A stretch of DNA of 64,000 nt from Eledone cirrhosa (Eukaryota): contig OZ024740.1 of NCBI GenBank assembly GCA_964016885.1, forward strand, positions 76,260,001 through 76,324,000, written 5' to 3'. Made by a program: the position numbers and the translations under genes. Below, one piece after another: positions 1-62,783 of this stretch. Position 1 is the stretch's first letter; each line of letters opens with the position of its first letter. The notes under the pieces are model-generated. The model saw only the letters and a list, made by a program, of their open reading frames with translations, was not told the origin of the DNA and did no database searches.

Positions 1-1846
1 CAGCCCCTGAAAACGGGTCCGAAGCCTGCCGCCGCTAGCACCGCATCCAGGTAGCCATGGTCGACCCTATCGAATGCCTTAGATTGATCCAAGTTGATCA
101 GGGCCCCACCAAAGCCGGGTTCGTTCCCAACCCTCTCTATGATGTATCGCATGAGGTGGCGGTTATCGTGGATGGACCTGGACGGGATAGCACATGTCTG
201 CGCATCTCCCACCAGGTTGCCCACGACAAGCGCCAGCCTCTTTGCTAGCACCTTGGCCAAAATCTGTAACTCTGTATTTAGCAGAGTTATGGGCCTGAAA
301 TTATTTATATCGTCCCCGTTGTTCTCGTCCTTCCTCACTAGCGTGACTACGCCCTTGGTCACAGTACAGGGAATTCTCCCGTTCTGTTGCCAGTTGCAGT
401 AGACCGCCTCGAGGAGATCGGGGAACAAGTCCGGCATAGCTAGATATAGTTCGTATGGAAGACCATCGAGACCCGGGGATTTGCGTCTGCCGCATTGGCT
501 CAGCACGTCCTCTATCTCAGCGGCTGAAATCGGCTCCTCGCAGGACTTTGCCTCCCTGTCCGAGAGACGCGGCAGGCCGTCGAGGTATGGACCGAAGTCC
601 ACGTCCCCAACCGGCCCCCCGCCCCTTCCGAACAATCCGGCAAAGTGCTTTTGAAAAGCCTCGCACATCTGCTTAGGTTCAAGGATCACCCGTCCATCCT
701 GGTCTCGCAAAGACCGGAGAGTGGATCTGCTCCCCCTTTTGGCTTCTGTCACGCGGGCCCAGCTAACAGCTTTGGTCCCCTCGTTTCCCAGAGCACGTAT
801 TTTGCTTCGGACGATGCAGCCTTCGTGTTTCGCGTCGAAGAACTGGCCCAGGGCCGTTCTCGACGCTAGCACTCTGGCCACGTCGCCGCTTCTAATTGCC
901 TCTTCTACACTATCTACCAACTCCCTTTCCTTCCTATTTCTATTTGAGGCTAACTCCTTACTAAATTCTATAGAGACTACTCTAATCTCTCTTTTGAGAG
1001 ATCCCCACCACCTGCTGTTGACGATGGCGCCCGTCAACCGCTTCTTAACTAAAGTGCTAATCCGGTCCCTGTAAGCCTTACTTGCCGGTAAGGACAAGTT
1101 GAGCTTCCAGTAACCGGGGCCCTGTCTATGAGTTCTGTCAAGGTTGATCATGCAGGTCACTAACTTGTGGTCTGAATAGCCAACCATGCGCATTTTTGGA
1201 CAACTTAAAAAGTCCTTATCCTTAATTCTAACTAAGAACCTATCTAGCTACGACCTAGATGATCCGCTACGATTTGCCCAAGTCCAGGTTGGCGCAGTCG
1301 GAAAATCTAGTCGATATCTATCGGCCAGGTCAAATCGACCGATTAACCCTTTGAGGCTATTACACCCCTCTCTATCGGGACAGGCCCCTACGTAGTCCCA
1401 GCGTGCATCTAGGATACCATTCAAGTCCCCCACTAATAGCAAGGAGCGGGACGCCCCTAGAAAAGTCTCCAGACGATGGAAGAAGTCCGGCCGCATTGAC
1501 CCGAAAGGGCCGTAGGCGGCTGCCAACCTAAACGCTCCGCCTTTACCACTGCCAAGGTCCAGAACCACTAGTCGACCCCCGGGTCCAAATGTACCATCTG
1601 TGTTGCGAGACCCAGATGTTTTTGCAGCAGAACGACAACTCCACCCCCACCTCCGGGCTGACAGAGTGATGCGTGCATCTCAAAGTCATCAAAGGTGGGG
1701 GCCAGCTGTCGCACGTTGCTGATCCGGGCCTCGCAAATAACCATCACATCTATACGTTGTGACCTGAGGTCATTTAGAAGCATTGCTTGCTTCCAAGTTG
1801 AGCCCAGGCCACGCGCATTTAAACAGCCTACTCTTAGCATAGCCAT
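1..1846 (-). pseudogene. E1 ORF2 (APE endonuclease and start of RT), disrupted
   Basis: Starts MAMLRVGCLNARGL at 1846; frameshift near 1568; in-frame stop near 1248; RT motifs continue to position 1. Confidence 0.85.
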
Positions 1847-1870
1847 GTTGGTGGTGAAGAGAAAAGGCAC

Positions 1871-59700: not shown

Positions 59701-62478
59701 CCATCGTCAACAATAAATGGTGGTACTCTCTCAAGAAAGCAATTAGAATAGAATCGATAGGGTTTAGCAGAGAGATAGCCTTAGAGAAAAACAAAATAGA
59801 AAGAGAACTAGTAGCCAAGGTAGAGGAGGCACTTAGAAGTGGCAACGCGGCTAGAGAGTTAGCGCCGAGAACGGCACTGGACCAGTTCTTCGATGCGAAA
59901 CACGAAAGCAGCGTGGTCAGAAGCAAAACACGTGCTCTAGGAAACGAAGGAGCGAAAGCTGTCAGCTGGGCCCGAGTGGCGTAGGCGAAAAGTGGCAACA
60001 AGTCCACGATTCGGTCTTTGAAAGACCAAAACAGACGCGTGCTACTTGACCCCAAGCAAATGGGCGTGGCCTTTCAGCAGCACTTTGCGCGACTGTTTGA
60101 GCAGAACGACGGTAAGCCGAACGGGGCAATGGACTTTAGTCCTTACCTCGACGGCCTGCCGCGTCTCTCGAATACGGACGCCGAGTTCTGCGAAAGACCG
60201 ATCAGGGATACTGAGATACGGGCCGATGTGGGAAACGCAAGTCACCCGGTCTAGATGGTCTACCCTATGAGTTTTACATAGGCATGCCGGACTTGTTCTC
60301 TGGCGTCCTCTGCAATTGGCAGCAGAACGGGAGAATTCCCAGTTCTGCAGGCAAGGGCGTAGTAACGCTGACCAGGAAAGACGAGAACAAGGAGGACGAA
60401 ATTAACAACTTCAGGCCCATAACTCTGCTCAACACAGAGTTAAAGATTTTGGCCAAGGTACTAGCGACGAGGTTGGCGCTTGTCGTCGAGAACCTGGCAG
60501 GGAAAGCGCAGACGTTTGCAATCCCGACCAGGTCCATACATGACAACCTCCACCTCATGCGATACATCATAGAGAGGGTGGGTAGTAAACTCGGCTTCAG
60601 TGGGCCTCTGATGAATTTGGATCAGTCTAAGGCATTCGATAGGGTCGACCATCGATACTTGGAAGCGGTTCTCAAGGAGGCCGGTTTCGGTCCCGTTTTC
60701 AGAGGCTGGATCGAGGCGATGTACACCAGCATCTGCTCGAGGGTCAAGGTGAACGGCTACTTATCGGAGCCGTTCGCAATCACGCGTTCCATTCGACAGG
60801 GGTGCCCTCTCTCCTCCATTCTGTACGTATTGACTCTAGAGCCACTACTGCGGATATTGGAGTTGTTGCAGGGCATCCCTCTAGAACCGGGACTGAGAAA
60901 AGCGGCGTCGGTTTATGCCGACGACATGACGGTAATGATGTCGAGCACATCGGAAATCGGGGTGATCGGCAACTTACTGAAAGAATACGAAACGCTGACG
61001 GAAGCAAAACTAAACCCGGACAAGTCTGTCGGTTTGCAACGCGGTACGTGGAGAGGCAAACCGATGACGTCCGACAGCATCGTTGGACGCTGAACGGACG
61101 GACCGGTGAAATTGCTAGGGGTCTGGTTCGGTCCAGACGTCCAGGTGGAGAAAAGCTGGAACGAGGTCACGGCGAAGGTGTTTGCACTCACCCAGAAGTG
61201 GGCCGAGTGCAAACTGGCCTTGAAAGGTCGAGCGGAGGTGGCTAACACTTTCATAGCGTCCGTCATCTACTACCGCTTGACTGTCGTACCTTGACCCCGT
61301 GAACACCTCGCCAAGATGGAACGCATGCTCTTCCAGTTTCTGTGGAAGAAGCAGGCTCCGCTGGTGAGGAGATCCGTCTGCTGTCAGCACCCTTCCAACG
61401 GAGGGCTGGGTATGCCGTGGCTGATGATGCGCAAACATGCGCTGAGGCTGCAGCATCTCCAGGTCTTCCTCACCGACCCCCAACCGGTGTGGGCACCGTT
61501 TGTGAGACAGGCTTTCCCACAGCTCGTCTCGCTGACGGAGCTGCAGTCCTGGGTCAAGAAAAGACCGACAACGATGGGCGCCTGGCACATTGAATGCTCT
61601 CAGGCGCTCACAGTCCTCTGTCAAGCGGGCGCAGCAATCAGTGGAGACTCCACTTCGACATTCTATAGAGGGATTCTACGTTACAAGGGCAACGACGTGC
61701 TCGGAGAGACTCTGGCGTCGAAGACCTTGAGCTCACCAGTCTGTTTGGTAGGACTTTCCGCCCGGGACCTATGGAGCTCTACCGGTTCGTGACAAGATCT
61801 ACAGGCAGGGATCCTTCCAAGAGGACGTGTCCAAGATGCGCGCAGGACATTGAAACAGTCCTGCATGCAATTGTACACTGCCCGGGCGTAAGCGACCTGT
61901 GGAATTATGCAGAACAACTGCTGTCGCGTATGGGACAAATCCAGTTGACTGCCGAGTCCATAGTACGGATCAAACCGCCAGCCTCTTTAGAAAACGAAAG
62001 AGAGGCCGTTTTCCTTTGTACGGTGGCTATGGTGAAAGAAGTTATATAGTGGACGAGATTGACAGGACTGAGGACAAATGCCTTTTTCTCCGGACAAAAA
62101 TTGATTCCCTTCTTTAAGTATCATTTTAGAAGGAGAATCAGAGTGGGGAGAGAGGCACTGCATCCCAGTAAATTTACTGAAAGGTGGGTGACTGAAGTGA
62201 AAATGGCCCGAGTGATTGGGCCTTCTCTGTTTATAAGCCTGTAGGTTGAAGAAGAGAGCAAAAGGAAGAAAGGAGCACTTGCACAACACGCTCCTGGAGT
62301 TGAGGGTTGTTCTATCGACGGTGTATTAAACAACCCATTTGTGACGCCTCCCCCCTATTGGGGATTTCGATTGTTGCAATTGTTTGTTTTTATATTTTTT
62401 ACAAGACTGTATGTAAAATCCCCGGCATGTCTTTGTATTGTCCCCTTTTCTTGTGCGCCCTTGTGGCAAATAAAGCAA
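56732..62478 (+). mobile_element. Tx1 copy E7 (subfamily B), full-length, decayed
   Basis: 5'UTR homologous to E2; ORF1 56934-58834 (CFRCGSTAHLKAPC); ORF2 58876-62244 in fragments; ends AATAAAGCAAT then CTAT repeat. Confidence 0.92.
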
Positions 62479-62783
62479 TCTATCTATCTATTACCTGTCC
62501 CTCTATATCTCTATCTATCTATCTCGGTGCCGACTCACTGATGTATGAAACATAGTTGTTATTGGTATTATTGCGCTTCGTTTATATGTTGGCTAATATT
62601 AATATTGATTCAAACAAATGTAAAATGCCATACGCGATGGTCGTACGGGGATTCCAGTGACCTCACATTGATAGTTATAATGAAAGAATGAGTAAATTAA
62701 ATATATTTTACTGCACACCCCATCATCTTTACATGTACAATGATAGTATATATATATATATATATATATATATATATATATAT

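Follow-up and report, generated by a model that had tools for sequence, protein, structure and literature searches.

(ATCT)n microsatellites as insertion targets of L1/Tx1-type LINEs in Eledone cirrhosa, with relatives at other target sites

A 64-kb stretch of the Eledone cirrhosa genome (64,000 nucleotides; assembly GCA_964016885.1, contig OZ024740.1, forward-strand positions 76,260,001 to 76,324,000; hereafter the window) holds 12 copies of long interspersed nuclear elements (LINEs) whose ends abut, with few exceptions, (ATCT)n, the GATA/TATC microsatellite as read on the sense strand of the element. Is this repeat a target that existed before the elements arrived, or a tail that the elements make for themselves? 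The junctions presented here identify (ATCT)n as the pre-existing target and not as a self-made tail. The mechanism that we consider probable is that target-specific LINEs with an apurinic/apyrimidinic (APE)-type endonuclease insert one way round at existing ATCT, with an endonuclease nick at the T-A step of the GATA strand priming reverse transcription.

Copies were inventoried by BLAST of the window against itself and by mapping with four reference copies, and all 12 that an earlier note on this DNA had proposed were located (E1-E3 on the minus strand, E4-E8 plus, E9 minus, E10-E12 plus). In the lines below, ORF stands for open reading frame and UTR for untranslated region.

E1, 1..3850, minus strand: family A sub-branch, 5' part of a full-length copy
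E1 ORF1, 1871-3349, minus strand
E1 3' end, 1.85 kb beyond the left edge of the window: only ATCTAT follows
(ATCT)n target tract, 3861..3915, minus strand: common to the E2 3' end and the E1 5' end
E2, 3916..9290, minus strand: family B, near full length, disrupted
(ATCT)n tract, 9298..9333, minus strand: between the E3 3' end and the E2 5' end
E3, 9333..15136, minus strand: family A, full length, 5.8 kb
(CT)n grading into (ATCT)n, 15137..15278, minus strand: E3 5' junction
Three TATC units, 24121..24132, plus strand: E4 5' junction
E4, 24133..24517, plus strand: family B, 5'-truncated, 385 bp, followed by (ATCT)18 at 24517-24590
E5, 24589..25545, plus strand: family C, 5'-truncated, followed by (TCTA)10
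E6, 25591..25864, plus strand: family B, 5'-truncated, followed by an imperfect ATCT/GTCT tract
E7, 25910..26459, plus strand: family B, 5'-truncated, followed by an imperfect ATCT tract
E8, 27033..31048, plus strand: family A (E1 sub-branch), truncated in ORF1, flanked by ATCT at either end, which grades into (CT)n
E9, 33178..33400, minus strand: fourth 3'-UTR type, 223 bp, two ATCT units in the 3' flank, 5' flank non-TATC
E10, 48242..53718, plus strand: family C, near full length, (ATCT)5 upstream at 48221, (ATCT)22 downstream at 53719-53809
E11, 53810..56704, plus strand: family B, 5'-truncated, followed by (ATCT)n at 56705-56732
E12, 56733..62477, plus strand: family B, full length, disrupted, followed by an imperfect ATCT tract at 62478-62524

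The head-to-tail arrangement described earlier is recovered as three same-strand stacks, E1-E3 (1-15136, minus), E4-E7 (24133-26459, plus) and E10-E12 (48242-62477, plus), with E8 and E9 unstacked. As stack neighbours differ in family and in 5' break point, they represent separate insertions; an origin of the window stacks by tandem duplication was considered and is ruled out on the same grounds. The motif GTGG(C/T)(A/T)AATAAA...AA recurs at all 11 3' ends that fall within the window, with ATCT-type sequence after it. With respect to the claim that every junction is TATC in one orientation, all 15 junctions on which it was based are indeed TATC-type, equivalent to ATCT on the element sense strand, but the 5' junction of E9 (33400) is not, and the three subfamilies initially proposed become at least four 3'-UTR types. 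Among perfect tracts of at least 12 bp outside the elements, 13 of 16 of the AGAT class lie within 15 bp of a junction, as compared to 0/30 AT, 0/14 AC, 0/9 ACAT and 0/9 AG tracts, which agrees with the observation that no copy sits in (TA)n, (CA)n or (CATA)n.

The same association holds across the genome, where the 30 best matches were sampled for each of four queries, the three 3' ends and the family-A 5' end, with five window copies and one mis-oriented locus dropped. ATCT lies within 10 nt of the 3' end in 79/85 copies (A 29/29, B 25/27, C 25/29), one further copy having no parsable end. On the 5' side, 65 of 79 junctions (six internal breaks dropped) show two or more ATCT units within the final 20 nt and none shows them in antisense, the background rate of ATCT with at least two units being 62 in 49,476 windows (0.13%); CT, TA or CATA runs occur at three of the 79 junctions at most, (CT)4 at 3/79. 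The 21-mer at the start of family A occurs 180 times in the genome, and for the minus-strand full-length family-A starts, counted so that each site enters once, TCTATC is found within 10 nt upstream in 67 of 87 against a background of 0.29%. Thus, 5' flanks that are mostly non-TATC, as named in the earlier note as the finding that would speak against its reading, were encountered neither in the sample nor among the genome-wide family-A starts. Most full-length family-A copies (L091-L120) show ...ATCTC or CTCT immediately before the element start, and the sequence suggests that the family-A 5' end itself begins with target-like bases. Within 250 bp downstream, a copy of the ATCT clade follows in the same orientation in 24/83 cases and in the opposite orientation in 1/83, and a copy of the (ATT)n-associated families treated below in 0/83.

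Target or tail is decided by the target-site duplications (TSDs). Among 51 copies with both junctions, 12 have a TSD that is not pure repeat, compared to 2.5 on average and never more than 8 in 10,000 permutations. The eight TSDs with a non-repeat base in the core measure 10-16 bp, with one longer, within a minisatellite; in all eight the duplication starts with the ATCT that stands right after GAAA(C/T)AT, the element ending in ...AATAAAGAAA(C/T)AT, a T precedes on the 5' side, and no repeats are added. Since these imperfect TSDs start at the first ATCT, the downstream repeat is host DNA, which upholds the original suggestion of TATC targeting over a self-encoded tail. Sites with a single ATCT unit have been used as well (L011, L037, E1), so that what is recognised is about T/ATCTA, short and oriented, rather than a long tract.

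TATC as a self-encoded tail, as in RTE, CR1 and L2 elements, with 5' TATC arising by insertion behind an earlier tail or by tandem duplication, could draw on the 24 of 83 copies with another ATCT-clade copy just downstream and on the many 5' tracts that come after the 3' end of a preceding copy. Nevertheless, ATCT flanks solo copies on both sides, the flank duplications with non-repeat bases begin at the first ATCT so that no multi-unit tail has been added, and stacked copies differ in family and truncation point. Furthermore, in 57 evenly spaced 10-kb pieces (570 kb) of the 3.0 Gb genome the AGAT class is rare (19 tracts, 0.053% of bases; AT class 894 tracts, 3.7% of bases), and an element adjoins 4 of the 19 AGAT tracts (two loci), with none near the other 15. 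The self-made tail is largely refuted by the TSDs with non-repeat bases and is very improbable. Near-random insertion followed by preferential survival or expansion of copies at TATC, conceivable in so far as the data comprise fixed or assembled copies only, is scarcely credible at all, as orientation is strict (antisense 0/79), 3' junctions are precise to the base, young copies of 97-99% identity show the same pattern and sister families use different targets.

Several observations weigh against (ATCT)n as the general target. The sampled copies are the best-scoring and hence youngest ones, 14 of the 79 5' junctions are without two ATCT units, about five (L039, L041, L042, L052, L082), in addition to E9, appear unrelated to ATCT, and among the 51 paired junctions 24 show no duplication and 15 pure repeat.

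What kind of element is inserted at these sites is most readily seen in E3, a young copy with 97-99% identity to other genomic copies.

E3 ORF1, 13227..14915, minus strand: 562 aa
E3 ORF2, 9652..13035, minus strand: 1127 aa, with APE endonuclease, reverse transcriptase (RT) and zf-RVT

For the Tx1 clade an ORF1 with a CCHC zinc knuckle is expected; in E3 ORF1 the candidate is a single CX2CX4HX4C motif (zf-CCHC E=0.003, below the curated cut-off). ORF2 matches the Pfam domains Exo_endo_phos, RVT_1 and zf-RVT (the last below the curated cut-off) and retains the catalytic residues E39, D141, N143, D202 and SDH; a 1-bp deletion near 9745, absent from 28/28 matching relatives, shifts its C-terminus and leaves the endonuclease domain intact. 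Two ORFs, with an N-terminal APE endonuclease, RT and a C-terminal zinc motif in ORF2, correspond to the layout of the L1/Tx1 group. Of the named proteins, one of Argonauta hians comes closest (66% identity in RT). By phmmer, ORF2 scores 305 bits with Xenopus Tx1L, 332 with a Tetraodon pol-like protein, 162 with human L1 ORF2p and 137/99 with plant L1, so that Tx1L is closer than human or plant L1. In a quick RT tree of 67 rows, assembled without authenticated animal L1, Kibi, Koshi, Keno, Dewa and Mutsu, the octopod elements and relatives of about 50% identity form a branch of their own (Shimodaira-Hasegawa-like approximate likelihood ratio test, SH-aLRT, 100), which joins the Tx1L group in a 51-row clade that excludes plant L1 (SH-aLRT 97) and falls outside a 14-row clade of Tx1L and fish proteins (SH-aLRT 100). 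Judged by sequence, the elements are L1/Tx1-type LINEs, and the earlier assignment to the Tx1 clade applies in the broad L1/Tx1 sense, with Tx1L nearer than L1, but may not extend to the Tx1 clade in the strict sense. A search of the ESM Atlas returned generic RT/endonuclease clusters only; the family is present in contigs of four runs, in which the flanks are uninformative.

Does the target differ among close relatives? The 3' motif recurs in relatives with about 70% DNA identity that the background sample brought to light, and the families with other targets are designated X, Y and Z. Behind X and Y stands (ATT)n, in 30/30 and 27/29 copies respectively; their 5' flank is (ATT)n in 21/24 and never contains two ATCT units. 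As the TSD test in the ATT families was not significant (1/23, reached by 3,059 of 10,000 permutations), the X/Y target rests on these 5' flanks. X and Y copies (L167, L181-L240) are seen with (ATT)n on both sides and in head-to-tail stacks. A Dong-like element stands head-on downstream of 13 of 59 X/Y copies.

Dong/R4-like element, L244:510-3494, minus strand: 994 aa, with RT and a C-terminal RPD motif, lying within (ATT/TAA)n and flanked by X copies

Dong differs from the elements described here in its single ORF, in the C-terminal RPD-type motif, which we take to be a restriction-like endonuclease, and in an unrelated targeting machinery. The (TAA)n target given for Dong of the R4 clade (PMC3812793) is that of X/Y on the opposite strand, and octopus Dong is mentioned in the literature (PMC9115989, PMC13282606).

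Family Z is very young, with 98-99% identity between copies. Behind 29 of 30 copies comes ACTCTAT, located at one constant position within a tandem repeat of 72 bp, and the remaining copy is off-target (ACTCTATAT). Full-length Z copies join with their 5' end 7 nt upstream of the 3' site in the 72-bp unit, an offset that may reflect a target deletion, a long duplication or a captured unit. The 72-bp unit is found without Z at four background loci. As to its surroundings, Z loci (L177, L291-L328) include an array with six full-length copies (G000:C1:4221001-4261000), the Z ORF2 looks intact with about 1145 aa, single diverged 72-bp units occur within a dispersed repeat (L129, L149, L154, L174, L042), and the family-B copy L042 ends beside sequence related to the 72-bp unit. 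Genome-wide, exact matches to the 3'-end motif number 27,826 (control 0). Forward matches account for 14,176 of them, of which 5,977 continue with TCTAY (the ATCT families and Z), 5,718 with ATTATT and about 18% with neither.

In a careful whole-ORF2 tree, A, B, C and Z form a clade (100/100) with Z as sister to A (98/98). On this phylogeny, the ATCT preference appears to have arisen once in the lineage, with sister families that use (ATT)n and one descendant that has moved to ACTCTAT in the 72-bp repeat. The RT tree places X as sister to the ATCT clade (SH-aLRT 99), a relationship that is an open fork in the whole-ORF2 tree. An ancestral (ATT)n, with a change from ATT to ATCT, would thus be supported by the RT tree and not by the whole-ORF2 tree.

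How would the elements find and use these sites? The hallmarks of target-primed reverse transcription (TPRT) are present, namely 5' truncation, a fixed 3' end and a short variable TSD. The endonuclease would nick the GATA strand at the T-A step, 5'-TAGAT/A-3' (a position uncertain by a few bases due to microhomology), and the freed end would prime reverse transcription. An AATAAA signal is located 7-10 nt before the 3' junction, and poly(A) follows in 0/210 distinct 3' ends, which suggests an RNA that extends into the repeat and pairs with the primer; such pairing, over the few nucleotides of the RNA 3' end that match, would probably aid insertion. Likely, the endonuclease is the reader of the sequence, nicks at this position and is assisted by annealing of RNA and primer. 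The last base of X, Y and Z is C, at a place where the target reads T ahead of the A with which it resumes, so that their junctions, too, start at a T-A step or just right of one. T-A steps are reported to be recognised by the L1 endonuclease, L1-EN (PMC12809410), and annealing has been suggested for other LINEs by matching 3' ends and targets (PMC3649969). Every insertion leaves ATCT on both sides for reuse by later copies of any ATCT family, which accounts for head-to-tail stacks of mixed families.

An unlikely distribution of roles would have a loose T-A nicker, with specificity owed chiefly to base pairing of the nicked primer with an RNA that terminates in (AUCU)n or continues into it. 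This would be in line with the AATAAA signal after which poly(A) is not copied, with the almost invariant first ATCT, with 3' ends of sister families that change together with the target and with the abundant (TA)n that is now and then used at the 3' side (L072, L084, L281). However, the informative TSDs leave the repeat 4-12 nt past the junction (e.g. L011, L037), where little pairing is available, (TA)n is about 70-fold commoner by bases but seldom used, and the endonuclease loops differ between target classes.

With recognition by the endonuclease as the preferred reading, the residues involved may be sought among the columns that separate ATCT from ATT families, which amount to 23/240 in the endonuclease and 16/360 in the RT. 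They include S194 (M/I in the ATT families) and Y152 (C in the ATT families), which align with L1 P197 and R155, loop positions being taken from the alignment with L1. P197 is described as the tip of the minor-groove hairpin and R155 as a putative DNA-contact residue (PMC1950540). S194 and Y152 are hence put forward as candidate specificity residues. Tentatively, and with more doubt than confidence on our side, the lineage may have stepped from (ATT)n to (ATCT)n and on to ACTCTAT of the 72-bp repeat with the same T-A cut geometry, a few surface-loop residues (hairpin tip 194, loops 152-157 and 62-66) and a co-adapting RNA 3' end choosing the target, and leaving (ATT)n may have been an escape from Dong. 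Three points tell against such a role of the endonuclease: its ATCT/ATT differences all fall on one branch, so that ancestry is a confounder, family Z inserts at a different site although it has retained the ATCT-type residues S194 and Y152, and L1 point mutants are reported with unchanged specificity and with integration stricter than nicking (PMC1950540).

Is such a target known from other elements? Microsatellite-specific APE elements named in the accessible parts of the literature are Waldo (ACAY), Mino (AC), Kibi (TC), Koshi (TTC) and a crocodilian Tx1 (TTCC/TTTC), and Dong (TAA) and Togen (TG) are microsatellite-specific as well (PMC3812793, PMC4640811, PMC4494074). The teleost Tx1 elements Kibi and Koshi and the crocodilian Tx1 likewise are APE-type LINEs with a microsatellite target (PMC4494074, PMC3812793), and the RT of Tx1-like proteins from fish and reptiles is about 34-37% identical to that of the Eledone elements. 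In contrast to (TC)n and (TTC)n of Kibi and Koshi, ATCT is found at 65/79 and (CT)4 at 3/79 5' junctions in Eledone, and as the lineage lies outside the 14-row Tx1L/fish clade, its (ATCT)n specificity looks independently gained. The Xenopus Tx1L ORF2 (YTX2_XENLA) has the same layout of endonuclease, RT and C-terminal zinc motif with 28% identity over 930 aa; however, it comprises 1308 aa versus about 1145 aa here, and Tx1L targets the DNA transposon Tx1D. For Octopus vulgaris, 80 L1-Tx1 consensus families, 13 of them recently active, are listed in a report that gives no target analysis and whose main text is without the word 'target' (PMC13282606); these probably include relatives of the Eledone lineage. 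A GATA/ATCT-specific LINE family was not found in the literature, with Repbase/Dfam and the target figures of PMC4494074 outside the search. Set against the families known from the literature, the (ATCT)n target is a modest addition, for which a catalogued entry is possible.

Besides the LINE copies, the window contains the following features; a tRNA was not found in it.

39669-41492, plus strand: 607-aa open frame, Penelope-like, with weak RT and GIY-YIG matches, both below curated cut-offs
42499-43002, plus strand: 167-aa frame, by eye similar to a mariner transposase fragment, without Pfam match
16674-16868, 18343-18507, 19009-19166, 35075-35288, 38624-38835 and 63480-63657: dispersed repeat of about 190 bp, SINE- or MITE-like (short interspersed or miniature inverted-repeat element), 77-91% identical
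32931-33060: degenerate 21/42-bp minisatellite, downstream of E9

How APE-type endonucleases gain or change their specificity is described as not well understood (PMC3812793), and loop grafts between distant elements are reported to have provided partial answers only (PMC1950540). More than the new target alone, it is the series of three targets among close relatives that makes retargeting of the endonuclease testable, as young and abundant families with precise, different targets and closely related endonucleases in one genome would permit interpretable swaps. Should stepwise retargeting be true, the lineage would provide a natural mutational path for an APE endonuclease, with enzymes that are 55-87% identical. 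For the genome of Eledone, the elements constitute a large component (27,826 3'-end motifs) that shapes the placement of GATA and ATT microsatellites, which matters for repeat annotation and marker design.

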